DNA from: Okamejei kenojei
Taxonomy: Eukaryota
Direction of reading: 5' to 3'
Assembly (NCBI GenBank): GCA_035221665.1
Contig: CM069156.1
Coordinates: 41,726,001 to 41,790,000 of the forward strand
Length of the DNA: 64,000 nt
In this document: positions 1-60,774 of the stretch, one piece after another
How the letters are laid out: every line of letters begins with the position of its first letter
Position numbering within the stretch: position 1 is the first letter of the stretch
Notes under the pieces: generated by a model
The model's database searches: none
What the model was told of the DNA's origin: nothing
Seen by the model: the letters and a program-made list of their open reading frames with translations, nothing else
Translations under genes and position numbers: made by a program

Positions 1-384
1 TTGATCATAAAGATCAACAAGAGAAACTGCATTATAATAAGTCAAGTGTTGTGCCTAGATCCCGGGAATCCTCTACTATAGATGACCCTTACTACCCCAT
101 TTCCCATGAAATTAAGAAAATCCATAAGTATGACAGTGACATGCCAAGGGTACAATGATAAAATAGTTAAGATTAAACAAGAACTACCAGATCGAAAGTT
201 TTGATCGATTTTAAAGATGGAGTTAACGATTCGGGATTTACTTGAAGAACCCCGCGCCTCCCGCTGGCAAAGGCATACTTCAAAGCAGCGGGCAATGAAA
301 AACACAGAACAACAAAAGGCCGGAGTAACATAGAAAGGCTCATAAAAGACTCAGAACAACCTTTGATCATTTAATTATGAGGGT

Positions 385-13117: not shown

Positions 13118-13446
13118 TCAGTTCGCGCAGGCGGACGACGAGACGGTGTGGCGCAGAGGCGAGCTCAGCGAGCTATGTCCGACGCTGCAGGAATAGCTCG
13201 AGCCCTTGTCCCATGCGGCGGCGGGGACCCGCAGGTAACTGCTCAGCCTGTACGTCTGTTCGGTGTCCGGGGTCACGGCGCCCGACGTCACCCCGCTCTC
13301 CGTCTCCACGCCGTCCACGGCCCAGCGCAGCGCCACGAAGCCCGGCTTAAAGCCGCTCACCAGGCAGCTGAGTGTGGCCGAGCCCGTGCCAGTTTCATCC
13401 GGAGACGGAGGGAGCAGGAGAAGCGAAGGCTTCCGAGACTCGTTAC
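13118..13446 (-). CDS. NS5: Ig light chain sigma-cart (type I/NS5) constant exon
   Basis: C1-set domain (S)NESRKPSLLLLPPS...ATLSCLVSGFKPG..LRW...YRLSSYLRV...W.KGSSYSCSVGHSSLSSP...SSSACAN*. Has canonical Cys/Trp/Cys and the near-terminal interchain Cys. Acceptor ccccacacAG at 13447-13448, phase 1. TGA at 13118-13120. Confidence 0.96.
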
Positions 13447-14465: not shown

Positions 14466-14989
14466 TTAAGGAGTTATGGCGGGAAGTACCGGTACCGGAG
14501 AGGCCTCCGGATATGCAACACTCCATGTCAAGTGACGCAAGGGGAGCGGTGGGACGCAGCGCGGCTCCGCAAACCATTGAGAGTTGGAGACGAGGAAGCG
14601 ATCTGTTCATCCCGGATTACACCCCGAGCCGGCAGCAACACGTCCTTTCCCGCTACACTCTCTAACCGACTCGCCCAACCCGCTGCACAGTATTTTCCTC
14701 AATGTCTTTCATCAGAATGCCTGAAAATTGTCTTCCTTGTTTACCAACATTAACGCGTTTGATTGTCGCAAAGTGCGACTAGTGTTAACGATGCAGAAAT
14801 CCCCGCGGGCTAGCGTTCCCCGCAGGCGCGAATACTCTCCCGACCGCTGATGGACAGAATGGCCTCCCGCGCCGAGCAGAGACAGAGCAAGTTTTTCCGG
14901 AGCGCAGATACAAGTCCGGCGTTCCCGGACTCTGGAATGAGGACGACTGCAAAGGGAATTCAATGGAACAGAACGAGGAAGTCACTTAC

Positions 14990-15349
14990 TATTTATATCC
15001 AGGATATTCCCAGGGCTGAAGAAGAATCCCACACCGCTTTCCCACACGGCACAGTAGTAGACGGCGGCGTCTCCGGGCTCCAAGGTGCCGATGGTCAGGA
15101 TGTAGCTGTTGGCGGAGGTATCTCTGGACGGTTGAAACCGGTCTGTGATCCCACTGCCACGGTATATATCATTATCCGTTTCATACTCTATCACCCACTC
15201 TGGTCTCTCCCAGGGACGCTGTCGATACCAACTTACATCGTAACTTGCAACATTTCCGTTCTGCATCCGACACTCTAAGCGGACGGTTTGTGCCGCGGAG
15301 ACAGGTCCGGACGTTGGCGTCTGATTCAGGACTGGGATCGCCAGGAGAC
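14990..15349 (-). CDS. NS5: Ig light chain sigma-cart germline-joined V-J exon
   Basis: (G)LLAIPVLNQTP...RLECRM...WYRQRP...DRFQPSRD...YILTI..LEPGDAAVYYCAVWESGVGFFFSPGNILDIN. V runs in frame into a J-like FSPG segment with no RSS between them. Acceptor ttttgttgaAG at 15350-15351; donor GTAAGT at 14989-14984. Confidence 0.96.
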
Positions 15350-15409
15350 CTTCAACAAAACACAATGAAAACCTTAAACAAAGCCTCAGAAATAATGGAC
15401 ATTCTTTAG

Positions 15410-18521: not shown

Positions 18522-20127
18522 CAGTGCTTGCAAAAGTTTTCATACCCCTTGAACTTTTCCACATTTTGTCACGTTACAACCACAAACGTAAATGTATTTT
18601 ATTGGGATTTTATGTGATAGACCAACACAAAGTGGCGCATAATTGTGAAGTGGAAGGAAAATTATACATGGTTTTCAAATGTTTTTACAAATAAAAAACT
18701 GAAAAGTGTGGCATGCAAAAGGCTTCAACCCCCTTCACTCTGATACCCCTAAATAAAATCCAGTGCCACCAATTGCCTTCAGAAATCACCTAATTAGTAA
18801 ATAGAGTCCATTTGTGTGTAATCTAATCTCAGTATAAATACAGCTGTTCTGTGAAGGCCTCAGAGGTTTGTTAGTGAACATTGGTGAACAAACAGCATCA
18901 TGAAGCCCAAGGAAGACACAGGACAGGGCAGGGATAAAGTTGTGGAGAAGTTTAAAGCAGGGTTAGGTTATAAAAAAATATCCCAAGCTTTGAACATCTC
19001 ACGGAGCACTGTTCAATCCATCATCCTAAAATGGAAAGAGTATGGCACAACTGTAAAACTACCAAGACATGGCCGTCCACCTAAACTGACAGGCCGGGCA
19101 AGGAGAGCATTGGTCAGATAAGCAGCCAATGGTAACTGCAGGAGCTGCAGAGAGCCACAGCTCAGGGGGAGAATCTGTCCACAGGACAACTATTAGTCGT
19201 GCACATTAGTCCACAAATCGGGACTCTATGGAAGAGTGGCAAGAAGAAAGCCATTGTTGAAACTAAGCCATAAGAAGTCCCGTTTGCAGTTTGCCACAAG
19301 CCATGTGGGGGACACAGCAAACATGCGGAGGAAGGTGCTCTGGTCTGATGAGACCAAAATTGAAGTTTTTGGCCTAAATGCAAAACGCAATGTGTGGCGA
19401 AAAACTAACACTGGACATCACCCTGAACACACCATCCCCCCTGTGAAACATGGTGGTGGCAGCATCATGCTGTGGGGATGTTTTTTTCTTCAGCAGGGAC
19501 AGGGAAGCTGGTCAGAGTTGATGGGAAGATGGATGGAGCCAAATACAGGGCAATCTTGGAAGAAAACCTGTTAGAGTCTGCAAAAGACGAGACTGGGGCA
19601 GAGGTTCACCATCCAGCAGGACAACGACCCTAAACATACAGCCAGGGCTACAATGGAATGGTTTAGATCAAAGCATATTCATGTGTTAGAATGGCCCAGT
19701 CAAAGTCCAGACCTAAATCCAATTGAGAATCTCTGGCAAGACTTGAAAATTGCTGTTCACAGACGCTCTCCATCCAATCTGACTGAGCTTGAGCTATTTT
19801 GCAAAGAAGAATGGGCAAACATTTCAGTCTCTAGATGTGCACAGCTGGTGGAGACATACCCCCAAAAGACTTGCAGCTGTAATTGCAGCAAAAGGTGGTT
19901 CTACATAGTATTAACTCAGGGGGGCAAAATACTTTTGCACGCCACACTTTTCAGTTTTTTTATTTGTAATAAAATTTGGAAACCATGTATCATTTTCCTT
20001 CCACTTCACATTTATGCACCACATTGTGTTGGTCTATCACATAAAATCCCAATAAAATACGTTTGTGGTTGTAACGTGACAAAATGTGGAAAAGTTCAAG
20101 CGGTATGAAAACTTTTGCAAGCCACTG
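18522..20127 (+). mobile_element. Tc1-family DNA transposon, complete ends, defective transposase
   Basis: ~200-bp TIRs beginning CAGTG, with TA on both sides (18520-18521, 20128-20129). Paired-like HTH with GRPPKL. WSDETK / QQDNDPKH / SPDLNPIENLW catalytic motifs (DD34E type). Confidence 0.95.
18900..19920 (+). pseudogene. Tc1 transposase pseudogene
   Basis: ORF pieces 18900-19121, 19236-19574 and 19653-~19920, broken by a premature TAA and frameshifts. Confidence 0.9.
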
Positions 20128-35735: not shown

Positions 35736-38493
35736 CCTCCAATCCACAGGTGCAGAGACCTTGGTATATCTTCATGTTACACACCCGTGGGCTGGAATCC
35801 GCCATTTAATCATGTCTGATTTTAGCCTACTAATCCCATTTTCCTGCCTTTTCCCCATAACCCTTCACACCCATTCTAATCAAAATGTGTCAACCTCTGC
35901 CTTAAAAATGCCCACTGGACATGGACTCCACAGCCCTCTGTGACAAGGATTTCCATAAATGACGAAATAAGTTCCACTTCACTAAAAGAGCGCGGGAGCA
36001 CCGCATCCATTGTCCTCAGCCCACGGACGCACGGTGTCGCAGCGGTATAGTTGCTGCCGGAGACCTGGGTTCGATCCCGACTACGGGTTCTGTCTGTACG
36101 GAGTTTGTATGTTCTCCCCGTGACCTGCATTAGTTTTCTCCGAGAACTTCGGTATCCTCCCATACTCCAAAGACGTACATGTTTGTCGATTAATTGGCTT
36201 GGTAAATGTAAAAATTGTCCCTAGTGGGTGTAGGATAGTGGGGATCGCTGGTCGGCGCGGACCCAATGGGCCGAAGGGCTTGTTTCTGCGCTATATCTTT
36301 AAACTGAACGAATCTAATCAAGATATATAATTAAAACGGGTGTATTACCACAGCTCTAGTACGGGGTCTTCTGAGAAGTCGTCTATTCTGAGAAGAGCCG
36401 TTACACTTGGACAACTGTGTTTCGGTTTTCACCGTGACTCCGTGACTCACCAACACCCTTCACCCCTTCACCATCTCTATACCGATGGATGAACAGTGCG
36501 ATCATCATGAGTGAAGTTGCCTGCAGTTAATTATCGGGAGCAGCCCACCACAGAACCCCCGACCTAGACCCAGGAACCTCCCTCCTGCAGCCCCACAAGC
36601 ATCAACACCTCCACTTCGCCTCATTCACAAGTATTCGGTCCCAAATCTAACCGCGGCCGCCATGAGCGTTCCTGCCTACGGCTGACATAGTCGTGAGCTC
36701 TTGAGTTTTCTTAACCTCTGCACCTCCCTGTGATCCAGTAACATACTCTTTGAGACCACATTTCGACTGGAGCGTTTGGTAATCTGTTCGGGCGCCTTCC
36801 GTGTGTCCTGGCACCAGCATTTCCCGATAACAGCAAAGCAGCTTGGGTCGTCTTGATTGATTAAATAGTCTCTCTTAACCTATTGCAATTTAGGGTATGT
36901 TAGAAGCTTGTCCTATACATTCTATGTTGTCTAGTGTGCCTCGGTGTTGGAGTTGTCAAATATGCATAGGAATGTACAAGGCATGATTAGTCAGATTGCA
37001 GATGCCACAAAATAGCTGGTAATGCTGACATTGAGGGGGTTATCAGTGGTTAAAACAGGATCTTGATCAGCTTGTCAAATGCTCTGAAGAACTTCAAATG
37101 GAGTGCAATGTAGATAACTGCTATGCGTTGCACTTTGGGAAGACAATCAAGGGCAGGAGCTTCACAATGAAGGCCCGGGGGGGGGGGGGGGGGGTGGTTG
37201 CAGAGCACAATTCCTTAAAAGTGGCGTCACCGGTAAATAGGAAGTGTTGTAGAGCAGAGGGATTAAGAGTACAGTTACATATTTCCATAAAACTGTTGTC
37301 ACAGGTAGACTGGGTGGTCAAGAAAGCTTTCGAAACATTGTCCTGCATCAGTCAAATATAGAAGTTATTATCTGACATTTGCAAGAAACGTTGATGAAAC
37401 CGCAATATGTGTATCGTGTTCAGATTTGGTCACTCTAATGTACGAAACGTGTTAATTAAGCTGAAAAAAGTTCATCGAGTCACAAGGGTGTTGCAAGAAC
37501 GGGAGTGGCTGATTTACAGGGAGAGGTTGAGCAGGTGTCCCTATCCACGGACACCTCACTCACACATTCCGCGCTCACCGATGGACATAACGGTGATCCA
37601 AGGTATTCAGTCAATACTTCATTCCAGGTCACATCAGAGAAGAGCAACAATGGGCCTGTTCCTTTACTTCCTACAAACACGGGTGACTCTCTCCACGTCG
37701 CTGTCTTGTCAAAAGCCTTCTGAAAGTCCAGATATAACACATCCACTGGTTCTCCCTTATCTACTCTACTAGATACATCCGGGAAAAATTCTATAAGATT
37801 CGTCAGATATGATTTACCTTTCGTAAATCCATGCTGACTTTGTCCAATGATTTCACCGACTACCTTCCCTCACTGAAGCAGAAGATGGCTGCCCCCAACA
37901 CTTTGTCCAATTGATATTATCAATTACATCCCTTCACTTTTAGATTGGGCGTCTATGTGGTGCAGAAATTGGGATTTTGTCCTCACTGTAATTAAAATAT
38001 TTACGTCAGCAGTTTGGAAGAGGATGGGATAAGAGTCTAATGTCAGACTACATGGAAAGCAATTTAAAAAGAGGGGTGGTGAATACAGCACTGGAGATGT
38101 TAAATCTAAATGCCTGCAGTAGGCTATACAAGGTGATGAGACAGACAGGCATACAGACCACAAGTCCCAATGACCTCCACCTATGTCTTCTCTAACTGTG
38201 AGTATTTCACAGCTGCACTCCCCTGCACAGATCACATTTATCCTCTCATCCTTGTACACTAGTCTCTTTACGGCAATCTAAATCCCCATTGAATCATCCT
38301 CGTTGTGGTAAACATATATTTCATACATGTAATGGTGGGTCTTTAGCGGAGAGCACAAATTTGTGTCTAGATCTGTAGATCCAATCACAGTGACAGCAGT
38401 TCCAGTAATACATACCTACCAATTAGTCCGATTGTATCGTATATTCCTCCGATTTATAAGTTATAAAAGTGTGAAAAATCTGAACAGTACGAT

Positions 38494-38720
38494 TTTGAAA
38501 TGAGGGAGAAAAAATGGCCAATCAACCGCTGTCTCTAAGGTGGTTGCGTCCAATCAGCAACCGGCTTCCCGTAAAATACCCGTCCAATCAGCCGCTGTCA
38601 CCAAGAGCATTGTGTCCAATCACAGAATGCGCTGATCACACGGCAGCCAATCAGACGCTGTCTCCGAGGGGCCAATCACCGACCAGCTACCCTCACTGAA
38701 GCAGAAGATGGCTGCCCCCA
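38494..38720. promoter_or_regulatory. CCAAT-box array with CHR-like TTTGAA and YY1-like motifs (copy 1)
   Basis: CCAATCA at 38518, 38550, 38584, 38616, 38647 and 38672. TTTGAA at ~38494. AAAATGGC at ~38511 and AAGATGGCTGCC at ~38705. Confidence 0.55.
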
Positions 38721-38804
38721 ACACTTTGTCTCTGCTGTTTGCACAGCGTGTGAAGCATAGAGACTTGTTGTAGGTGTTGTAATTGATAACAGCTGTAGTT
38801 GTGT

Positions 38805-38998
38805 GTGTGGAGGGAGGGGGAGGGGGAGGGAGGGGTAGAGGGAGGGAGGGTGGGAGAGGAGGGGGGAGAAGGAAAGAGGGGGGAGGCAGAGAGGGGGACG
38901 GAGGGAGAGAGAGGGGGAGAGGGAGATAGATGGAGAGAGAGGGGGGAGGGAGAGAAATGGAGAGAGAGAGGTAGAGAGGAGGGAGAGAGAGAGAGAGA
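38805..38998. repeat. GA-rich polypurine low-complexity tract
   Basis: (GGA/GA)n. Paralogue at ~61090-61315. Confidence 0.9.
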
Positions 38999-39253
38999 TT
39001 CCTTCCTTGCTACCAAATGACTTTGCTACCAAATGCAAGAAAGCAGCTATGACATAATACACAATAAACCATATTACAAATACACAATAAACAAGTTATG
39101 CTTTCTTGTACTCTTACATGGGTATGACCGTACATTAAAAAAAAAATCAGCAAAAGGGCATCGTGTAAAAATCCTCAGCAAAATACTGATTTCCAGGTAC
39201 TAGGAATCTGAAATGCTCTGACAAAACTTGGCAGCTCCGAATATATCATGATA

Positions 39254-44749: not shown

Positions 44750-47530
44750 CCATATACCTATCCACTTTACTTTTAAATGTTAAAATCGATCCTGCCTCCA
44801 CCACTTCTGTTGGAAGCTCATTCCACACAGCCACCACCCTCTGAGTAAAGAAGATCCCCCTCACGTTACCCCTAAACTTCTGTCCCTTAAATTCTCATGT
44901 CATGCCCTCTTGTTTGAATCTTCCCTACCCTCAATGGGAAAAAAAAGCTTATCCACGTCAACTCTGTCTATCCCTTTCATCAGTTTAAAGACCTCATCAA
45001 GTCCCCCCTTAACCTTCTGCGCTCCAAAGAATAAAGACCTAACTTATTCAACCTTTCTCTGTAACATAGTTGCTGGAACCCAGGCAACAGTCTAGTAAAT
45101 CTCCTCTGTACTCTCTCTATTTTGTTGGACATCCTTCCTATATTAGGCGACCAAAATTGTTACACCATACTCCAGAATTGGTCTTACCAATGCCTTGTAC
45201 AATTTTAACATTACTTCCCCACTCCTATATTCAAATGCTCTGTGATTTATAAAGGCCAGCACACCAAAGGCTTTCTTTACCACCCTATCTACATGCGATT
45301 CCACCTTCAGGGAACTATGCACAGTTATTCTTAGATCTCTCTGTTCCACAGAATTCCTCAATTCCCTACCATTTACCATGTACGTTCTATTTTGATTTGT
45401 CCTGCCAAGATGTAGCACTTCACACTTATCAGCATTAAACTCCATCTGCCATCTTTCAGCCCACTTTTCCAAATGGCCCAAATCTCTCTGTAGACTTTGA
45501 AAATCTACTTCATTATCCGCACCACCTATCTTAGTATCATCTGCATACTTACTTATCCAATTTTCCACCCCATCATCCAGATCATTGATGTACATGACAA
45601 ACAACAGTGGACCCAACACAGATCCCTGAGGCACCCCACTGGTCACCGGCTTCCAACCTGACAAACAGCCATCCACCATTACTCTCTGACATCTCCCATT
45701 CAGCCACTGTTGAATCCATCTTGCTACTCCGCCATTAACACCCAAAGATTGAACCTTCTTAACCAACCTTCCATGGGGAACCTTGTCAAAGGCCTTACTG
45801 AAATCCATATAGACAATGTCGACTGCTTTACCCTCATCACTTTCCCTAGTAACCGCTTCAAAAAATTCAAGAAGGTTTGTCAAACATGACCTTCCAGGCA
45901 CAAATCCATGTTGACTGTTCCTGATCAGACCCTGTTTATCCAGATGCTTATATATATTATCTCTAAGTATCCTTTCCATTAATTTGCCCACCACTGACGT
46001 CAAACTAACAGGTCTATAATTGCTAGGTTTATTCTTTGAACCCTTTTTAAACAATGGAACAACATGCGCAGTACGCCAATCCTCCGGCACTATTCCCGTT
46101 TCTAATGACATTTGAAATATTTCTGTCATAGCTCCTGCTATTTCAACATTAACTTTCCTCAATGTCCTAGGGAATATCCTGTCAGGACCTGGAGACTTAT
46201 CCACTTTTATATTTTTCAAAAGTGTCAGTACTTCCTCCTCTTTGAATCTCATAGTTTCCTTAGCTACTCTACTTTTTTCCCTTACCTCACAGAGTTCAAT
46301 ATCCTTCTCCTTGGTGAATACTGAAGAAAAGAAATTGTTCAATATCTCCCCCATCTCTTTTGGCTCTGCAGATAGCTGTCCATTCTGGCTCTCTAATGGT
46401 CCAATTTTATCCCTTGTTATCCATTTGCTATTAATATAGCTGTAGAAACCATTTGGATTTACTTTCACCTTTCTTGCCAAAGAAACCTCATATCTTCTTT
46501 TCGCCTTCCTAATTTCTTTCTTAAGATTCTTTTTTACATTCATTATACTCCTCTAGCAACCTCATTTACTCCATGCCTCCTATAATTATTGTTAGATATC
46601 TTTTTTTCGAAACAAGTGTCCAATTTCCCTTGAAAACCATGGCTCTTTCCAATTTTTTTCTATTTCCTTTCAACCTAACAGGACATAAAGATTCTTGTAC
46701 TCTTATAATTTCCCCTTTAAATGTCCTCCATTTCTCTTCTACATTCTTCCATAAAACAAAGTGTCCCAATTCACTCCTTTTAAATCCCTTACGCATTCCC
46801 TCAAAGTTAGCCTTTCTCCAATCAAAAATCACCACCCTAGGTCCAGTTCTGACTCTCTCCAAAATTATATTGAAACTATATAATGGTGTTGTGATCACTG
46901 GTCCGAAGTGCTCACCAACGCATACCTTCGTCACCTGACCTGCCTCATTTCCTAACAGGAGGTCCAGCACTGCCCCTTCTCTGGTCGATACCTCTATGTA
47001 CTGCTGCAAAAAAGTATCCTGCATACATTTTACAAACTCCAAACCATCCAGCCCATTTACAGAATGTGTTTCCCAGTCTATTTTTGGAAAATTGAAATCT
47101 CCCACAATCACTACCTTGTGCTTACTACTAATATCTGCTATCTCCTTACATATTTGCTCTTCCAATTCGCGCTCCCCATTTGGCGGTCTATAATACACCC
47201 CTAAAAGTGTTGCTACACCATTCCCACTTCTCAGTTCCACCCAAATAGCCTCCCTAGACGAGCCCTCTAATCTATCCTGCCAAAGCACTGCTGTAATATC
47301 CTCTCTGACAAGCAATGCAACTCCTCCACCTCTGGTCCCCCCAATTCTATCACACCTGATATTTAGTTTCCAATCACAGCCCTCCTGCAACCATGTTTCA
47401 CTGATTGCCACAACATCATATTTCCAGGTGTCAATCCAGGCTCTAAGTTCATCCACCTTTCTTACAGTGCTCCTAGCATTAAAATATACACATTTTAGAA
47501 ACCCACCATCCCTTATTCTCTGTCTATTAT
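44750..47530 (-). pseudogene. CR1 ORF2: AP endonuclease plus reverse transcriptase (few frameshifts)
   Basis: 408-aa piece (YFNARS, ISETWL, GVYYRPP, VGDFNFP) and 466-aa piece ([28 protein letters not shown]). Confidence 0.92.
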
Positions 47531-47706
47531 CTTTTTCCTCTTTCTCGCCTACATTTTGGGTCCGAGTGCTTCCCTTCTCTGCCTCTTGCCCCACACCCTG
47601 TCCCCTAGCCCCCTCTACCCGAGTCCCTCTCCCCAGCCTTTCTAGTTTAAAGTCTCTCCGGTAGCCTTTGCAAATCTCCCTGCCAGGATATTGGTCCCCC
47701 TCGGGT

Positions 47707-48582
47707 TCAAGTGCAAACCCGTTCCTTTTTGTACAGATCATGCCTTCCCCTAAAGAGGTCCCAGTGATCAAGAAACTTGAATCCCTGCCCACTGCACCAG
47801 TCTCTCAGCCATGCATTTATCCTCCACCTCATTCCATTCCTACTCTCACTGTCACGCGGCACAGGCAGTAATCCTGAAATCGTTACCCTTTTGGTCCTTC
47901 TCCTTAACTTGCCCCCCAACTCCCTAAATTTTCCCTTCAGGACCTCGTCTCTTTTCCTGCCTATGTCATTTGTACCTATGTGTACCACAACATCAGGCTC
48001 CTCTCCCTCCCTTTTCAGAATCTTTAGGACACGTTCCGACACATGCGAGACCCTGGCACCAGGGAGGCAAACTACCATCCGGGTCTCCCGACAGCGTCCA
48101 CAGAATCGGCCCATCCGACCCCCTAAAACTATAGCCACCAGTCCCCTATTACAATCGCACTCCTCTTTTTGCTACCCTTCTGAGCATCAGGGGCCGGTCT
48201 CTGTGCGGAGGCCGTCCGCTGCTGTTTGCCCCAGGTAGGCTGTCCCTCCAATCGTACTCAAACCCGAGTACCTATTTTCCAGGTGTACAGTCACAGGGGT
48301 ACTCTCTAGCCCCTGCCTCTGCCCCTTGCCCTTCCTAACCGTGACCCACTTGTCTGCCTCCTGTGGTCTGGGAGTGACTACCTCCCTGTAGCTCCTCTCT
48401 ATGACCTCCTCACTCTCCCTGACCAGACGGAGGTCATCGAGCTGCTGCTCCAGGTTCCTAACACAGTCCTTTAGGAGCCCCATCTCGAAACACCTGCCGC
48501 AGATGTGGACGTCTGGAGGGCTATCAGATTCCCTGACCTCCCACATCTGACATCCAGAACAGTACACTGCCCTTGCCTTCAT
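47707..48582 (-). pseudogene. CR1 ORF1: Zn-finger/coiled coil plus SGNH-esterase-like domain (frameshifted)
   Basis: CSGC...HICGRC, then a coiled coil LEQQLDDLRL. Second piece RMVVCLPGARV...VVVHIGTNDI...RINAWLRDWC. Confidence 0.85.
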
Positions 48583-50260: not shown

Positions 50261-50780
50261 ACCGACTACCTTCCCTCACTGAAGCAGAAGATGGCTGCCC
50301 CCAACACTTTGTCCAATTGATATTATCAATTACATCCCTTCACTTTTAGATTGGGCATCTATGTGGTGCAGAAATTGGGAATTTGTCCTCACTGTAATTA
50401 AAATATTTACGTCAGCAGGTTTGGAAGAGGATGGATAAGAGTCTAATGTCAGGACTACACCCCTGGAAATCAATTTAAAAGAGGGGTGGTGAATCAGCAC
50501 TGGAGATGTTAAATCTAAATGCCTGCAGTAGGCTATACAAGGTGATGAGACAGACAGGCATACAGGCCACAAGTCGCAATGACCTCCACCTATGCCTTCT
50601 CTAACTGTGAGTATTTCACAGCTGCACTCCCCTGCACAGATCACATTTATCCTCTCATCCTTGTACACTAGTCTCTTTATGGCAATCTAAATCCCCATCG
50701 AATCATCCTCGTTGTGGTAAACATATATTTCATACATGTAATGGTGGGTCTTTAGCGGAGAGCACAAATTTGTGTCTAGA

Positions 50781-51438
50781 TGTGAGGAATAAAGTGATCA
50801 AACCCTATTAAAGAAAGGAGTTTTAAAGAGAATTCAAACAGAGAGGGGCTGGAGAGAGGATTCTGACAGCAGTGTCTGAAGGTTGCCAGTTGCCAGACCC
50901 ATCCTTGAGGCCTTGAGTTAGAAGAGATTCATTGTGTAGCTAGAGAAGGGGGTGGTGTAGAGAGATCCCTATCAGTGGAAAGGAGTGATAGATGGGACCC
51001 CTGTCACTATAGCTTAGCTTTAGTGATGATGTAGGAAAACTGAGAGGGATTTCACTAGGAGGTGAGTAAAACTGGGGCCAGAAGGTCATGAGCAATTGAG
51101 CATGCTTAATAGAAAAAATGATATACAACACACCCCCTGGTCAAGAAATTGCTCATTACCATGAACATGGTTGAACATGCGATGGATGATATGGGAGGTG
51201 CGAGGGGATGTACGGTGGGTTGTACCTACAGATTGTGCACCTCCGACCCTGATTGGAGAAAGGTCCGGAGGGGGGATTGAATGTAAGATTTTGTGTTATA
51301 AAGGGGGATGATCTCTCTGGCTTCGGGGTGTCTCGAGTTGGAGAGGCACCCGGTCTGCCCAGACTCGTAAAATAAAGAAATCTCTTGCTTCCAGGATTAG
51401 TCTTGAGTATTAATTGTGAGCATAAAGGGTATCTCACA
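50781..51438 (+). repeat. ERV 5' LTR
   Basis: TGTGAG...CTCACA inverted termini. TATAAA at ~51297 and AATAAA at ~51371. Confidence 0.95.
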
Positions 51439-51440
51439 AT

Positions 51441-51458
51441 TGGGGGCTCGTCCGCGAT
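51441..51458 (+). promoter_or_regulatory. Primer-binding site, tRNA-Pro type
   Basis: TGGGGGCTCGTCCGCGAT, one mismatch from the MLV PBS-Pro TGGGGGCTCGTCCGGGAT. Confidence 0.9.
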
Positions 51459-51699
51459 CGCCACTCCGGCTGCTTGGTGGAGGCAAGGAAGGAGGGGAAG
51501 GTGCACCCCTGCTGATTCGCTCAGCAGGTCGCCTGCCCATCTCCTTGCTTGCCATCAGCAGTTTTGAGCGAGTGATATCCGCTGGAAAAGACTCGTAAGG
51601 AAGCAAGAGGGGGTGTAAGGTAACTTACGTACGGGACGGTCACAGTGATTCTTGTGCACAAGACCAGGGTAAGAAAAAACGACTATTAATTATTATCTG

Positions 51700-53570
51700 G
51701 GCGACCGGGGGGTCTGTTCGGACGGGAATAGTCCGATGAGATAATGGAAACCGGGAACGGGAGACGTAAGGGTCCGGGGAACCGGGATGAGGCTCATACT
51801 GATGGAGCCGAACATTCCGCCCGAATAGTCCGTTGGGGCGAATGTTGTATGGAGGGGTGAGGGAAGAACACCCGGGGTAAGAGTAGAGAGACTATGATAA
51901 AGTTTTGTTATCTCCCTTGAGTGGCCGAAGGTCCAGCCTATTCGAGGGAGCGCAGTGTGGTGGCCGCGGTTGGGTCTCAAATTGAGGCTCGGGTGTGAGA
52001 CAGGCTTGAATGTTTTTATGAATGACATCTGACAAACGCTGAATCAAATAGAAAAGGAATCTGCCCAGTGCTGGAAACCCCAATAATGGGATGTTTCCGT
52101 TAAAAACGGAAAAAAAGAGCACGGATGAACCTGACTGGCCACCAATTGGTGATGATCACACCTACGGAGACTGCCCCCGCCATATGAATCCCAGCCCCCA
52201 AATATATCCCCATCAGAGCGCCGGCTGCACATTCCCAGGAGGTCCCACTAAGCCAGAGTCAGGCAGGGCGCACTAAGCCAGGCAGTATACCTGTCCGCTT
52301 CTGTCTCAGAGGAAGACAGAGTATAGAGAATTACGGAAAGTACAAGGTGGGGGGGGAACAAGAGAGCCAGTCAGATACGGAAAGAGAGAATAAAAGTGAG
52401 AGGACGAGTGGATGAGACGGGTGCCCCAGGCAGTCATCGGGAGGAGGACCGCGATCTCAAACGAGGGCTCGAGGCACAGGGTTATATTAGAGCGGTCTGT
52501 TCGAATGAAAGCCCCTCAGGGAGGACCCCGTTAGGGGGAAATGTCGGCCCCCCCGGTGGAATTTGTAAATGTGCCTACTCACCAGTATGGAGGTGAGAAA
52601 CTTTTAAAAGGGAGATGAAAAGTTTATTGACGACCCCTTGGGGACTGGCTGAACAAATAGATCAGTTCCTAGGGCCAAATTGTTTATACATGGGGAGGAA
52701 ATGTGGTCGATACTGGGAAGTTTGTTTACTTCAGAAGAAAGGCAGATGGTCAGACAGGCCGGGGAATAAAGGTTTGGGATAAGGGGTTGTCGGCTGACGC
52801 GCGGTGAGCAGGAGATGCAGGTCGCAGCTCGAAATATCCCCATAACTGTGCCAAATTGGAATAACCAAACAGAGGAAGGAAGAAAAAGAATGAGGGGGGA
52901 GATCTCAGGGAGATACTCTCCCTAATAAAGGGAATCAGAGAAGCCGAGTCCCAAGGGACAGAATTCGAACGGGCTTTTGAAAATCTGCAGAACAAGGACG
53001 AACCTCCAACAGTGTTCTTACAAAGATTAAGGTGGGAACGTCCAGCAGTATTCGGGGATAGACCCTGATACGACCGCAGGGCCAGCAGCAGTTGTTGAAG
53101 GTTAATTTTGTTTGTGACAAAATCATGGCCAGATTATTAGAAAGAAATTGGCAAAAAATTGGACAAGATTGGAATGGAAAAACCATTGAATCAGTTGTTA
53201 ACAGAGGCTCAAAAGGTTTAAGTAAGACGGGATGAGGGAGTAGCAAGACTCACAGAAGGGAAAAAGCAAAAATGATGTTGCAAGCAGTACAGCAAGTAGC
53301 ATCAGAAGGGGGGAATTGAAGGTGATAGAAAGCCCGGTGTCGTGGAGACCGGGAAGGGGAAGCCACGGTAGTATTAGAGGACAAGGAAGAGGTGAACGGA
53401 GGGGACCGAAGTTGGGGTCCCCGGAAAACAAGGAACAAGAAACAGAAGGATGGCTATACGGGGCCACCCCGGTGTTATTATTGTAAAGAGCCGGGTCATT
53501 TCAAAAGGGAATGTCCTAAGCTACGACGGCGAGGTGCAGGGGTTTTCGTACGCATCATGGAGGAGAATAG
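51700..53570 (+). pseudogene. gag: ERV gag (frameshifted)
   Basis: MA-like IPP.SPLGRML and WP..GS. MHR-like QNKDEPPTVFLQRL at ~52990. CCHC knuckle CYYCKEPGHFKRECP at ~53473-53517. TAG-G readthrough-like context at ~53568. Confidence 0.85.
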
Positions 53571-56500
53571 GGGTAGTCAGGGGTTCCGCTCCCTGGGGTG
53601 TATGAGGATACACACGGGAACCTCTGGTAAACTTGAGATTATTAGGACCCAGGGCCCAGGGGAGGAGGATTGATATTCCCGCATGGTAGATTCGGGAGCA
53701 GAGAGATCAAGTGGTAACTAACGGTACACAGAAGGAATGAGATTGGGTAAAAAACAAGTTAGAATCTCAGGGGTAGAAGGGAAAGTGATGACATTACCCG
53801 AGGTAGAAGGGTGGTGGTGAAATATCGAGAATCGGGAAACTATGGAAGATTTAATCTTAGTAGTACCCCAGCAGGGGATGAATTTGATGGGAAGAGACTT
53901 ACGAATTCAATTAGGAATGGGAACAGCCCCGTAGGGGGACAGATAATAGTCCAATTGTATAAATTGATCCCCACGGAGGACGAGGGGAAGAAATAGTCCC
54001 GCAGGTGTGGGCCAAGGAAGGAAACCGGGGTTGGGCTGCAGATCCCACCCTTGAAAATAGCTCTGAAAAAAGAAAGTGAGATAGTACGGGTAAGGCAATA
54101 TCCAATTTCTTATGGAAGGAAGGAGAGGAGACTTCAGGCAATTATAGAGAACTTACTAAATACGGTATATTAGAGAGTTGTATGTCCCCAGATAACACCC
54201 CCGTACTCCCCGTAAGGAAGACCGACGGGACGGTCAGATTGGTCCAGGATCTCAGGAATTAAATAAGGTAGTTAGAACGCGACACACCTGGTAGTCCCGA
54301 ACCCGTATACCATAATGGGAGGGACGGATACCCCCGAATCACAAGTGTTCAGTGTGGTAGATTTATAAGACGCGTTTTGGATCTAAAGCTGTCCCCTGGG
54401 CTGAAGAGAGCAGGGACCTTTTTGCGTTTGAATGGGAAAACCCAGAGACCCAAAGGAAACAGCAGTATCGGTGTGGACTGCACAACCTCAGGGATTTACA
54501 GAGTCCCCAAACCTGTTTGGACAGAGATTAGAACAGTATTAGAGGACCGTCCCGAGGACTGATGAGACACAGCTGTTGCAGTATGTGGACGATTTATTAC
54601 TATCAGGGGAAGAAGAGGAGGCAGTTAAGGATGCAACAATAACCCTCCAAACTTTCTGGGGGACTAAAAAGGGGTTGACAGTGTCTAGAAGTATCCCGGT
54701 TGTCCAGGTCTTTAGAAGTAAGTTACAGTTTGTAGAACGAGAAGTTAAATATCTAGGACACCTGATAAGCGATGGGAAAAAAGGGGGAGAATAAACCCAA
54801 AAGGATAGCGGGAATTACCGGACTTGCCAATGCCGAAGAATAGAAGGAGATTAGGAAGTTTCTTGGACTGATTGGATATTGTAGATTATGGATAGATGAC
54901 TATACCCGACAGGGTTAGGTTTCTATATGATAAATTAAGCGAAGAAAATGATAAAGTAAAGTGGGAATCCAGGGACGAACACCAGTTTAGGAAATTAAAG
55001 AACAGTTTAATCACTGCCCCTGTACTGGCTCTCCCGTCTATTGTACAGCCAGTCCATCTTTTTGTGTACGCAGAAAATGGAAATTTGCGCTGGGAGTAAC
55101 TACCCAAGAGAAAGGAAGGGAAGCGCAGCCCGGCGCGTTCCTCTCCAAATCTCTTGGAGCAAGGATCGCGGGGAGGGCCAGTATGTATTCAAGCGGTATC
55201 AGCCACAGCGGTGTTGGGAAGAAAGTAGAAAAAATTGACGGTTGGAGGAACTCTGGGTGTCCACATCCCCCACACGTCCCGGACATACTAACTCAACAGA
55301 CCAGTCGGTGGTGACGGATGCGTAGAATATTTTTGAAGTAGAGGTTATACTTAGGGAAAAAGAATGATGTACCATTGTAACGGATAAAAACCAAATCCCT
55401 CTCAGGTTTGGTACTCGGCAGTGCTGAGCAGGAAGGGGAGTTATCAGAACATGAGGTAAGTGAATAATGAACTCAGACAAAGAGTAGGGAAGATTTAGAA
55501 GAACGACCACTGGAGAACAGGGGAAAGATGGTTATGATGTTCTTCCCGATGCATAGACGGAAAAAGGTATAGTGGTATGCTATAATAACCGAGAAGGGTT
55601 TGAAAAAGGAAAAGCAGGCAGGTTACCAGAAGTTGGTCCCGCAAACGTTGAATTATATGCATTACTGAGGGCATTGGAACTATGAAAGGGAAAGAAGGAA
55701 ACTGTGTAACGGACTCCAAGTATGCCGTTGGGGTACACACCTCAGGGAAAATCTGAAAGAAAAGGGATGATTACAGCCAGAGGGAAAGAGTTTGGCTCAG
55801 GAACATAAAATTGAGAAAGCGTGTGGGGAAGCACTAAAATTGCCAAAAGATATACGTGGTCAGGTACAGGCACCAGAGAGGGAAATGCGCTGGAAGCTAG
55901 AGGGAAACAGGCAGTCGATAGTGCCGCTAAGACAGCACGACAGAAGGACGGTAAAAATTGCTGTCTCTGATACGTGAGATAGGGGATAGAGAAGATACCT
56001 TATTCTCGCGGGAGGAGAAGATAAAATGAATGAGTTGGGTGCCCCGGTCGCTCCACGACGGGAAGGGTTGGACGCCGGACAAAAAACAATAATTACTAAA
56101 GGATTGATGAGGGATTTGATTAGACAACTACTTTCGCAATCGCACTGGGAGCTCAGGCTCTGTGCGACACGATACTTACGGACTTAGCCTGTAGAGCATT
56201 TATACTTTAGCCAAGCAGCGGTGTCTGGGTGTGTAGTGTGTCAAAGGTGAAAAGCAGGTAATGAGAGCTGCCAGGGGGAGGCCACAATTGGCCATTAGAC
56301 CCTTCCAGAGAATACAGGAACTTCACAGAATTACCACAATGACAGCAGTGGAAATAGCTTCTGAGTTTATAGTGGAATCACTTCACCAGTGGGTAGAGGC
56401 AGTTCCACGATTAAATGCCACGCCCAGCAGTTACAAGATATTGCTGGAACAAATCATCCCACGATAATGGAGGATAATTAATCCAATAGACTCAGATAGA

Positions 56501-57100
56501 GGAACACATTTTGCTTCCAAGGTGCACCTATTAATTTTGTCCGCGCCTTGGAAGAAACTGGAAGCTGCAGACCGGGCACCCCCAGAGTTCGGGAGAGTGG
56601 AGCGGATGAATGCCACTCTAAAAATACAGATAACTAAAATTAATGGAGAACGGGGGTTACCCTGGACGAATGTCTACCAATTGCGTCTATTGCTAATACG
56701 GACGGCACCACGAAAGGATAGTGCGGTGACTCCCAAGAAATGTTGTTTGGGACTGCCTTATTTTGGGAAGGTGGAAGGCACACCAACCTTTGAGGGAGGT
56801 GATGTATTCTTGAGGAACTATTTACTGCCAGTGTCCCGTGTCCCCTTACAGAATTTAAAGCGAAAGGATTTATTGGCTCTAAGCCCGCCACTTGAACTTT
56901 CCAATACATGCTGTAAGGCTGGCGACTGGTACGGTCAAAAAGTGGAAGGAGGAGAAACTCAGCCCAGTGGACTGGACCGTACCTAGTATTACTGACAACC
57001 GAGACAGCAATAATACGAACAAAAGAGAAAGGGTGGACCCCGCGATCCAGGGTTTATAGGGACCCGTCGATCCACCCGTTCCTGAGGAGGAGGAACTTGG
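53571..57100 (+). pseudogene. pol: ERV pro-pol (protease, RT, RNase H, integrase; frameshifted)
   Basis: VDSGAE at ~53686; LVQDLR; QYVDDLLL at ~54580; FLGLIGYCRLWI; TDSKYA; IN HWG...CVVC, DSDRGTHF and GRVERMNATLK. Confidence 0.9.
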
Positions 57101-57169
57101 ACGGTGAAGCCGGGAAGTAAACCCCTAACAGGATGGGAATATAATAATCAAGGGAAGGAATAACGCAGT

Positions 57170-59940
57170 ATGAAAGAAGCTTGTGGTATTGTTTTGCTTT
57201 GTAGGGAATTGGGTGTAAAAGGTATTAATAATTGTGATGAATGGTATCACCTATTCAATACAGAGGCAATACCAGTCCTTTACCTATCTTCCCATGTGAA
57301 TAAAGCATGCCATGACCGAAAGCATAGATACCTTTGTAAAGAGGGGGGAATGGAGTATTTGATGGGCAGCAATAGGGGTATATAGGGAAAAGTTTGGGGC
57401 CGTTACCCGGCCCAAGGGGAAAGAGATGGTTGGTGTACATTAGTTTTCCCTTCTCAATCATAAAAGGGCAATAGATAAAACGAAGAGGAATATGAAAGAG
57501 ATTACTAAGTATAGTCACTAGAGCTCCCCCTCCCCCCACAGACCTCAGCCGCAAGGTGCACCAGACACTGTACGAAAAAGCAAAAGCAGATCGAAATCCC
57601 TAAGAGGAAAAAAACCTGTTGTGGACTTGGCCACCCCGGATAGCGGGACCCGGAATGTGACTAACTGTTGGGTCTGTCGAGGACCACTGAGGAATCACCG
57701 GCCGGGGAGAGGAGCCATTGTTGAAATATGGAACTGATGGGTGGAACCTGACAATTTGACAAGACCGAGATCCCCAGGGGGTATGGGTCCTGACAGATTG
57801 TCTCGGTCGGGACTGAGTGTAGCCTAGGCCCTGGGCAAAGGATGCCGTCCGAGTAGGCAGCAGCCCCGCCACGCATCGCCACTCCCAGGGGGCCAAATCA
57901 GTCCCGAGTGTGGTGGCCAGAGGAGCCTAAATGGTATCTAACATGAAATATGGGAAAAACTGCGCTATCCGATGGAGGTGAGGATGGAAATCAGCCGACT
58001 ATGGAACTGCACCGGGAATTACCCTTATCAGGGATCCCATAGTGCGAGTTATAATTGGAACAAGGTTGCTCTAGGGAAGACCGGCCCCTGAAAAGTATTG
58101 TTATGGATATGCGGATCAAGGCTTACTCGGTGTAGTAAATTAATTAAACAAAGTTTATGAAAAATTTAAAAAATATAGTAAATTATAATATTTAATTATA
58201 GGGCATTTGAAAAAAAATTACATTAAGTCGGTGTTAATATGTATTTATTAAATATTAATTTATTTTATTAAATACTCCGGTGTTAAGGTTTTAATATTTA
58301 TTTTAAAATAAAAGAATTCATAAAACTGAATAACGTTAACTATTCATAATGATCTTAATATTGATTAATTTATTAATAATTATATTTATTAAAAATTACA
58401 TGAAAGTAAAATTATCTATATTAAAAACATATCATTAATATTTAATTATATTGAATTAAAACATAAAAGATTATTAATGTAGAAATTTACAATTATATAA
58501 TTATTACGGCGAATTAAAAAAATAAATTATTGATACTTCTTAGATTTACATTTTTAATAAAGTTTAAGAAAATTATATATAAATTATAAAATTTTATTAG
58601 TTTGCATAATTAAAATTTTTAACTTATAATGAAAAGATTAAAATATTTTGTATGAATTAAGAAAAAAATAATATTGTAAAATAAAAAAATAAAATAAAAA
58701 TACATTTTAATCTAATTATTTTGAAACCAGTTCAATTCTTATTTTTACAAGGTTATATTATGGGGTACAATTTATTTTAAATTAATTATTTAAGTAGTTA
58801 AGAAGTACTTCCCCATTTTAAAATAAAATCTTTGATTAAATTAAACAGAAAATAATCAACTCTACATTCAAAAGCAAAATTACATCACCAAAATCACTAA
58901 ACCACAATAAACACCCCAAAAAACAAACCACAATCATTAAAATAAAAAATCCCTTCAAAAAACAACCCCAGCCGAGCCCGCAAATCCAACACCTATCAAC
59001 CTCCCCCACCGATAACAGCATCGCCCATAACTCCGTGACCACCACCCCCCCCCCCACACACTACATCCACCCCCCCCACCAGAGCACCGCCACCCCCCCC
59101 CCTCCCACCACCCACCATTCCCCCCCACCCCACAACCCCCCCCCCAGGGTGAAGCCCTGGTGTGGGACTTGGTTTTATTTGGACTGGTACAACCGGATTC
59201 TTCCTTTAAACCCCCAAGAAGGGCTGGTCGTTAGATGCCTTATATTCAGAAAATAGAGAAAATAGACCATTGGAGAATGGAAGAATGATGAGTGGCCACC
59301 CGCAAGAATCATCTCATACTACGGACCCAGCCACCTGGGCACAGGATGGATCCTGGGCTATACCGCACACCATATACAATGTTAAACCGGATCATAAGGC
59401 TTCAGGCAGTATAGGAGGGTAATTACAACCAAACTGCGGGGGTGCGAGATGCTGGCAAAGCAGCAGACGGCAGAAGAGAGCAGAAATATACCAGAACAGT
59501 TAGCCCTAGATTACCTCCTGGTCAGAAGAAGAGGGGTATGCGGAAATGAAACCTCGCCTAATTGCTGTTTGAACAGCGATGATAATGGACCGGATGGATG
59601 GACATATCAGAAGGGATCCGGAAGTTGGCGCATGTTTGCCAAACTAAAGTGGAATTCGATTATGGGAACCCATGGTGGGATTCTATCCTTCGGAGGAACA
59701 TGGTGGAGAACGGTGGGACTGTGTGTTTTCTATGAGCAGTGGCTGGACTGATCTTTATCCCTTGTTTGGTATCCCTTGTTAAGGGAACTTATTACCAGAA
59801 TATTAAGTCAGATGCAGGCGGTATCATGCCTATGGGAGAGAAAGGGGAAATACAGAAAATAATGGATAATGCGGCCAGGGGAAGTTTATTGATTTACAGA
59901 GGAAGAAGATTAGGACGATTGTTACGTCGAGTTCGAATTT
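57170..59940 (+). pseudogene. env: ERV env, ERV3/HERV-I-like (frameshifted, interrupted at ~58135-59145)
   Basis: NCWVC at ~57663. TM region WKNDEWPPARII..YGPATWAQDGSW....MLNRIIRLQAV. Immunosuppressive-like LALDYLL followed by C-x6-CC. Confidence 0.85.
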
Positions 59941-59982
59941 GAAGGAACTTAAAATGAGGGGTTTAAATCATGTATGCGTAGC

Positions 59983-59998
59983 AAAAGAAAAAGGAGGA
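59983..59998 (+). promoter_or_regulatory. Polypurine tract
   Basis: AAAAGAAAAAGGAGGA immediately before the 3' LTR. Confidence 0.88.
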
Positions 59999-59999
59999 T

Positions 60000-60649
60000 T
60001 GTGAGGAAAAAAGTGATTAAACCCTATTAAAGAAAGGAGTTTTAAAGAGAATTCAAACAGAGAGGGGCTGGAGAGAGTCAAGTTCTGACAGCAGTGCGAG
60101 GTTGCCCAGTTGCCAGACCGATCCCTTGAGGCCTTGAGTTAGAAGAGATTTCATTGTGTAGCTAGAGAAGGGGTGGTGACAGAAGACTCTATCAGTGGGA
60201 AAGGAGTTAGATGGGACCCCAGGCACTAAAACTTAGCTTGAGTGCTGATATAGACAACGAGAGGGTTCCCTAGGAGGTGAGTAAATACGGGCCCGTACAT
60301 GAGCAATTGAGCATGCTTAATAGAAAAAATGAATATTACAACACACTCCTGGTCAAGAAATTGCTCATTACCAAAACATGTTTTGAACATGCGATGGATG
60401 ATATGGGAGGTGCGAGGGGATGTACGGTGGGTTGTACCTACAGATTGTGCATCTCCGACCCTGATTGGAGAAAGGTCCGGAGGGGGGATTGAATGTAAGA
60501 TTTTGTGTATAAAGGGGGATGATCTCTCTGGCTTCGGGGTGTCTCGAGTTGGAGAGGCACCCGGTCTGCAGACTCGTAAAATAAAGAAATCTCTTGCTTC
60601 CAGGATTTAGTCTTTGAGTATTAATTGTGAGCATAAAGGGTATCTCACA
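60000..60649 (+). repeat. ERV 3' LTR
   Basis: Direct repeat of 50781-51438. Confidence 0.95.
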
Positions 60650-60774
60650 TAGATTTGTAGATCCAATCACAGTGAGAGCAGTTCCAGTAATGCATAACTA
60701 CCAATTAGTCAGATTGTATCGTATTTCTTCCGATTTATAAGTTTAAAAAGTGTGAAAAATCTGAACAGTACGAT

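Follow-up and report, generated by a model that had tools for sequence, protein, structure and literature searches.

A full-length class I endogenous retrovirus in a ray genome belongs to a young, large family that has likely spread by reinfection

The window analysed here, a 64,000-nt stretch of the genome of Okamejei kenojei (contig CM069156.1, positions 41,726,001 to 41,790,000), contains a provirus bounded by two long terminal repeats (LTRs) at window positions 50781-60649. With a probability of about 85%, we read it as a genuine full-length class I endogenous retrovirus (ERV) of a large family that has likely spread recently by reinfection; its frameshifts and a patch of anomalous sequence in env are likely read errors, and the insertion is likely polymorphic. 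A preliminary description, made from the sequence alone, had proposed a complete env-bearing provirus of a poorly described chondrichthyan lineage with an ERV3-type envelope.

Structure of the provirus

All parts of the provirus lie on the plus strand. The 5' LTR (50781-51438, 658 nt) and the 3' LTR (60000-60649, 650 nt) both have TG...CA ends, and a 4-bp target-site duplication flanks them, with its left copy at 50777-50780 and the same four bases at 60650-60653. The primer-binding site (PBS) at 51441-51458 is an 18-mer of the tRNA-Pro type that differs from the common tRNA-Pro end at one place, position 15. It is followed by gag (51744-53570, start approximate), which has a single CCHC knuckle at 53473 and ends in TAG followed by G, and by pro-pol (53571-57130, end approximate), which encodes a protease (VDSGA, 53686), a reverse transcriptase (RT; YVDD, 54582), RNase H and integrase. 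The 5' part of env (57170-58133) carries a suppressyn-like N-terminal domain and the motif CWVC at 57666, and the 3' part (59158-59950, end approximate) encodes the transmembrane subunit (TM), with LNRIIRLQA at 59382, LALDYLL at 59500 and CX7CC at 59539. The polypurine tract (PPT) is at 59983-59998.

Between the two parts of env lies a patch of 1024 nt (58134-59157, no strand assigned), AT-rich and then C-rich, which the preliminary description did not mention. Because of this patch, env is split and the window copy is longer (9.87 kb) than the colinear sister copies (about 8.7 kb). Sisters are here the 39 related copies fetched from the same genome: comparison of 1 kb of pol with the genome gave 718 first-look candidates, which are not copy numbers, and 40 were scored. 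As assembled, gag and pro-pol of the window copy are broken, by 67 and 155 frame-breaking indels, respectively, relative to the nearest sister, and the longest open stretch is 172 codons. The LTR pair aligned with 614 matches, 21-22 mismatches and 29 gaps, a divergence of 3.4%.

These results agree with the outer LTR coordinates, the 4-bp duplication, the PPT and the proline-type PBS of the preliminary description, and its single CCHC knuckle, gag TAG-G, YVDD, CWVC, LNRIIRLQA and LALDYLL were all located in the window. Two of its details did not hold: the TM motif given as CX6CC reads CX7CC both in the window and in each of the 37 motif matches among the 39 sisters, and the motif YGPATWAQDGSW is spread over more than one frame in the window.

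Retroviral class and primer-binding site

The order LTR-PBS-gag-pro-pol-env-PPT-LTR with a short target duplication is that expected of class I. The natural open frames of two sisters were used as queries for the protein comparisons, and they contained the domains Gag_p30, zf-CCHC, RVP, RVT_1, RNase_H, rve, Integrase_H2C2 and TLV_coat. Compared with solved structures, sister Pol matched the RT p80 of murine leukaemia virus (MLV) type with E 1e-167, versus 2e-43 for foamy virus Pr125Pol and 1e-25 or weaker for human immunodeficiency virus, and no epsilonretrovirus chain was among the matches listed. The gag-pol junction was TAG-GGG in 34 of the 39 sisters (CAG in one, four unmatched). These data argue that the element is a class I (gamma-like) ERV; order, domains and RT class all agree with the full-length class I elasmobranch provirus proposed earlier.

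The RT core was 69-70% identical to its nearest named relatives, which are ERV proteins of snakes, birds and rays, and the rattlesnake and songbird proteins (P0133, P0131 and P0132) were as close as the stingray one. This likeness across snake, songbird and stingray suggests transfers between vertebrate classes. In an RT tree of 26 rows, the family's neighbours were a ray protein, two snake proteins and two unnamed ones, with a support of only 86 in the SH-like approximate likelihood ratio test (SH-aLRT). Most matches of the RT search were bird proteins, and none bore the label HERV-I, ChiRV1 or epsilonretrovirus.

Position 15 of the PBS exists in two forms in the family, found in 19 and 15 of the 34 classed copies. 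Among the tRNA-Pro loci of the host, 24 match the common end and one the variant end. The two forms are scattered over the copy tree, which is poorly resolved (10 changes against a shuffled mean of 9.2), and this scatter fits repeated correction by the tRNA primer. That the variant came from a special tRNA was also considered and rejected: the lone matching tRNA-Pro locus (L043:1501-1573) has mismatches in the T-stem and acceptor stem and an extra base, and was not accepted as a primer. The PBS-B2 variant by which MLV escapes silencing presumably lies at the same position 15.

Copies of the family and their mode of spread

The pol sequences of the 39 sisters were 89-92% identical to that of the window copy. 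Both LTRs were within the fetched stretch in 30 sisters, with lengths of 7.5-9.3 kb; the target duplication of these was an exact 4 bp in 24, 5-bp-like in three, 4 bp with one mismatch in two, and absent in one. LTR divergence, a check proposed in the preliminary description, was 0.8% at the median in these pairs (Kimura two-parameter distance 0.0079, range 0-0.020, n=30), an upper bound given assembly errors. This median would translate into 1.8 or 18 million years under the two rates used in PMC4422223, neither of which is batoid-specific. Judged by the identical LTRs taken to mark an invading ERV, none of the 30 sister pairs was fully identical; one had no substitutions and 17 gaps, and the window pair is masked by errors. 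The copy tree was star-like, with a median end branch of 0.006 compared with 0.094 for the window copy. The family is thus young, large and multi-copy in this batoid.

Open stretches of at least 300 codons were present in 37 of the 39 sisters, gag-sized in two and env-sized in two. The sister search suggested earlier yielded many proviruses with both LTRs, but gag, pol and env were all open in none of the 39, nor in any of the 40 copies when the window copy is included as assembled, a count that assembly errors blur. The term complete env-bearing provirus accordingly holds for the layout and not for the open frames.

In 24 of the 39 copies, a shared non-coding segment replaces part of gag; the window copy is one of the colinear ones. 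The segment is about 580 nt long and of unknown origin (for example L001:7335-7967, minus strand), and it gave 1974 first-look candidates genome-wide, more than pol did. A non-autonomous subfamily may outnumber the full-length form.

We next compared the ratio of nonsynonymous to synonymous changes (N/S) between shared and private variants. Among variants present in at least three copies, N/S was 0.16 in RT, 0.30 in the C-part of the surface subunit (SU) and 0.11 in TM, whereas among private variants it was 0.56, 0.92 and 0.94, respectively (private versus shared, p 0.002, 0.026 and 0.0001). Constraint on env before integration, with none after it, is an accepted sign of reinfection. Because the shared variants show purifying selection in RT and env, the family has likely spread by infection or reinfection. 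The gag-defective derivative was likely carried along in trans. It could be argued instead that the family multiplied mainly inside cells, by retrotransposition or by complementation from a few master copies, with env as a passenger. The star-like copy tree would suit such a history, as would the gag-replacing segment in 24 of the 39 copies, which implies that much of the spread occurred in trans. However, amino-acid changes are under-represented among the shared variants of the SU C-part and TM, and the env region is kept at full length in most copies, so that we consider this alternative unlikely and prefer spread by infection.

Integration site and probable insertion polymorphism

Both flanks of the provirus recur elsewhere in the window without it (37705-39253, plus strand), 96% identical to the left flank and 90% to the right, and in this duplicate the four target bases occur once, at 38368-38371. 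The left flank had only two copies among the 40 best matches in the assembly. A 558-nt contig from run X1, which may be the sample used for the assembly, passes from the left flank into the 5' LTR for 48 nt with no other letters, and has the flank states of the filled copy. The LTR ends, the target duplication, the empty duplicate site and this junction contig together establish the provirus as a genuine integration. The earlier statement that the provirus is younger than the local duplication is borne out.

A 279-nt contig from run X5, whose sample and study differ but whose organism label is the same, spans the site with no LTR in it, and at 6 of 10 flank differences it has the state of the filled copy. 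Its simplest reading is likely that of a pre-insertion allele. Because the contig is empty yet carries filled-copy flank states, the insertion is likely polymorphic in the species and absent from some animals. Run X12 (organism B) gave no contig on the empty site, which is not proof of absence.

A quite improbable alternative is that the "duplicates", one empty and one filled, represent alleles of a single locus that the assembler placed in tandem, the provirus being heterozygous in the sequenced animal. Low long-read support would then account for the poor polish, the X5 contig does mix states of both copies, and run X4, from a single sample, holds both versions of the left flank. Against this, the two copies are 2-4% apart and contain different inserted elements, as do other duplicated blocks of the window, which fits a real tandem region. 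We therefore retain a real duplication with a polymorphic insertion in one of its copies.

The surrounding region (16359-44016) is a complex tandem duplication with blocks 85-96% identical, about 100 kb from the end of contig C26. It is filled with reverse-transcriptase fragments of long interspersed nuclear elements (LINEs) and holds a putative Tc1-like transposase piece at 19575-20108, both named from motifs.

Frame breaks and the patch in env

Short indels separated the window copy from its sisters at 19-60 per kb, compared with 1-2.4 per kb between sisters, whereas its transitions were no higher than between sisters. Relative to the nearest sister there were 391 indels, of which 317 were single-base, or 46 per kb against 3 per kb in a control sister pair. 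T-to-G changes made up 72 of the 278 substitutions relative to the nearest sister and 6 of 149 in the control pair (p 2e-9). In short-read contigs from four runs, which stand for the whole family and not for the window locus, T was the letter most often found at positions that are G in the window (31-39 places per run). No indel relative to the nearest sister was present in the first 220 nt of the 5' LTR, which adjoin unique flank, and the flanks differed from the older duplicate by 2-9 short indels per kb. Because of the indel excess, the T-to-G bias, transitions that are not raised, and the clean flanks and LTR start, the frame breaks likely stem from errors in a long read that was poorly polished, within a repeat beyond the reach of short-read assignment. 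The earlier suggestion that the frameshifts are mostly single-base and may be sequencing errors is thus strengthened.

Could the window copy instead be an old, truly decayed provirus, whose frameshifts and 3.4% LTR divergence reflect its age? The 21 substitutions and 29 gaps of its LTR pair, and a longest open stretch of only 172 codons, would be expected of such a copy. But indels outnumber substitutions, T-to-G dominates while transitions stay at the sister level, the flanks are only 2-9 short indels per kb from an older duplicate, sister LTR pairs are 0-2% apart, and an empty allele-like contig was found. We regard decay as barely credible and keep to read error. A short stretch within RT (54694-54712) is skipped by several of the sister alignments and is probably another read error.

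The patch in env takes the place of about 11 nt. It is 74% A+T and strand-skewed, and its composition drifts from A/T to almost pure C. None of the 28 sisters with both anchors identified had it (the other 11 of the 39 lacked an anchor), and no second copy was found in its own genome. No Rfam match at E<=1 and no tRNA was detected in it. It has no frame longer than 106 codons under translation tables 1, 2, 4, 5 and 9; table 14, which has one stop codon, gives 326. Searches of phage records gave no match, nor did a search of metagenome contigs with one 30-mer. Contig depth in the four runs was 0-6 over the middle of the patch and thousands beside it; no listed contig joins across, and depth was thus not counted as evidence. 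The patch is probably base-calling junk from the same long read. Its A+T content and strand skew do give it an organelle-like look, and an origin as genuine foreign DNA was considered, such as mitochondrial DNA of an invertebrate or a chimeric parasite read. Such an origin is very improbable to us, since the patch replaces about 11 nt rather than adding to an intact site, drifts to almost pure C, exists once in the genome and has none of the Rfam, tRNA or long-frame features just listed. The assembly therefore seems to hold unpolished read sequence in repeats, including this 1-kb patch of probable junk, which is a warning to its users.

Several points weigh against the reading given at the outset. 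The sisters were the best matches to the window copy rather than a random sample, and a replication-competent copy was not found among the 39. The shared-variant counts are small, 13-22 per region at three or more copies, and the N-terminal domain of env is unconstrained among widely shared variants (N/S 0.91). The X5 contig also has three empty-copy states, one third state and three private differences, so that it may derive from a third paralog of the duplicated unit, and the evidence is this single contig from a single animal. No listed contig shows the 3' junction. The argument for read errors is indirect, and some of the breaks may be real. SH-aLRT was the sole support measure of the trees, which were quick ones with any outgroup taken from the hit lists themselves.

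Envelope and its N-terminal domain

The sister env matched 170 proteins at E<=1e-10, the top ones being "ERV3-1-like" proteins of Chiloscyllium and Hemitrygon at 47-50% identity; existing annotations of Chiloscyllium, Hemitrygon and Narcine already include ERV3-like envelopes with 44-50% identity. In a quick envelope tree of 49 rows (2 of 51 were dropped as too short), the family joined ten other shark and ray envelopes (SH-aLRT 92), and this clade was sister to syncytin-Mar1 and bird envelopes (SH-aLRT 95), with ERV3-1 in another clade. TM gave more than 200 bits to EnvR-type matches versus 27 bits to syncytin-2; the rows of the envelope tree included no outgroup from the main gamma-type group.

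Both features of the EnvR supergroup, CX7-9CC in TM and CXXC in SU, are present. The CXXC (CWVC) is at residue 183, compared with 166 in syncytin-Mar1 and 292 in ERV3-1, so that its position and the separate clade set the envelope apart from ERV3-1/EnvR proper (group 4). Group 3 of the supergroup is described as having a single small N-terminal RBD-R domain and a CXXC about 130-150 residues from the mature start (Hotzel, bioRxiv 10.1101/2024.03.17.585361). With one small N-terminal domain, CX7CC and a CXXC at about residue 170-190, the ray envelope fits group 3, the syncytin-Mar1 type. The ERV3-type envelope of the preliminary description is therefore right as to an ERV3-related TM, but the envelope is not of the ERV3-1 type proper and belongs rather with the syncytin-Mar1 group of the same supergroup. 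The hosts named in the accessible text of the Hotzel preprint are tetrapods only, and that text mentions no fish, shark or ray and no suppressyn.

Residues 18-147 of the sister env matched human suppressyn (8oui_D) at E 4e-18, with the cysteines matching. A suppressyn match was also found in a Chiloscyllium envelope (E 9e-13) and in a manakin envelope, whereas the N-terminal domain of syncytin-Mar1 gave none at E<=0.01. The domain was found at 25 bits or more in 21 of 120 envelope matches, the named members coming from sharks, rays and birds. A structural model of the domain (predicted local distance difference test, pLDDT, 75) had suppressyn as its only fold match at E<=0.001, with modest TM-scores of 0.41 and 0.56, and the syncytin-1 domain ranked fourth. 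The sequence and the model both argue that the N-terminal domain is homologous to suppressyn, and it is predicted to be a receptor-binding domain. Suppressyn, a remnant of the ERVH48-1 env, is a secreted primate fragment of 160 aa, whereas in the ray family the domain heads a full envelope. Suppressyn is known to bind ASCT2 (PMC10604696; PDB 8OUI). By analogy, one may guess that the ray env used an ASCT2-related transporter; it is only a guess because the same fold also occurs in relatives that are not known to share that receptor.

Relation to known retroviruses

By analogy with gammaretroviruses, transcription of a genomic RNA would start from the 5' LTR, with its reverse transcription primed by host tRNA-Pro bound at the PBS. 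Ribosomes reading through the gag TAG would yield Pol, the 4-bp duplication would stem from integrase, and the gamma-type envelope of EnvR group 3 would be translated from a spliced RNA. Runs X6 and X8, tentatively taken to be RNA, cover the family, which is no evidence of its transcription.

A HERV-I-related ERV fragment of the lemon shark was reportedly described by Martin in 1997 and Herniou in 1998. The lemon-shark ERV is cited in PMC4422223 as close to human ERVs. Together with the HERVIPADP/ChiRV1 group (PMC4724089), and compared by description, it resembles the ray family in having a class I RT and relatives in other vertebrate classes; the ray family differs from both in its tRNA-Pro primer site. 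ERVs with gamma-type envelopes were found in six cartilaginous fish, with more than 500 copies in three, and some had a gamma-related Pol (Chen et al., bioRxiv 10.1101/2021.11.23.469661). Their ERV-GA.a-Ara and ERV-GA.a-Cpu are like the ray family in gamma-related Pol, gamma-type Env, simple genome and hundreds of copies; as the comparison is by description, the ray family may or may not be among those lineages. In the accessible part of that preprint we noted no analysis of polymorphism or of receptor domains. The "ERV3-1 Env-like" proteins of Chiloscyllium, Hemitrygon, Narcine and Hemiscyllium belong to the same shark and ray clade as the ray family at 38-50% identity over the aligned parts, and these are automatic gene names rather than described proviruses. 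Counts of 2018 clade I RT loci are given for six chondrichthyan genomes in PMC11089739. A screen that included 13 cartilaginous fish placed none, as far as its accessible text goes, among the 37 orders with invading ERVs (PMC10435555). Further background is in PMC4977317, PMC6001957, PMC3185771 and PMC4358406.

In the literature searched, which left most subscription journals outside, no description of the ray family was found, and none connecting suppressyn with sharks or rays. The phrase "poorly described chondrichthyan lineage" overstates the novelty, since ERV3-like envelopes are annotated and ERVs with gamma-type envelopes are published. This kind of ERV is already known in cartilaginous fish, and the ray family is an additional member.

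A bolder interpretation is that the germ-line invasion of a cartilaginous fish by a retrovirus is still under way or only just over, with segregating insertions, infectious spread and a suppressyn-type domain in its env; we regard this reading as somewhat unlikely. If true, a suppressyn-type domain, and perhaps use of an ASCT-type transporter, would be shared along one envelope lineage that links rays and sharks, by way of birds, with the primate placenta. The single provirus is ordinary; the family, as a young, high-copy and probably polymorphic batoid ERV, could supply markers for population work and let recent retroviral activity in rays be put to the test. It also takes EnvR group 3 past the tetrapods that the accessible text of the defining preprint names, and ties an N-terminal domain of that group to suppressyn by plain sequence similarity.

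Neighbouring sequences

A long putative LINE frame, named from motifs, lies at 45143-47804 on the minus strand. The window also contains a type I immunoglobulin light-chain gene on the minus strand (14985-15389 and 13121-13444), whose constant exon is 89% identical to that of little skate and 87% to that of sawfish. The likeness to little skate places the host among the batoids, in keeping with the elasmobranch host proposed in the preliminary description. Residues 5-139 of the skate protein (leader end, variable and joining segments) are covered in one unbroken frame, followed by the constant exon, and the gene looks germline-joined; germline-joined type I light chains are known for skate.

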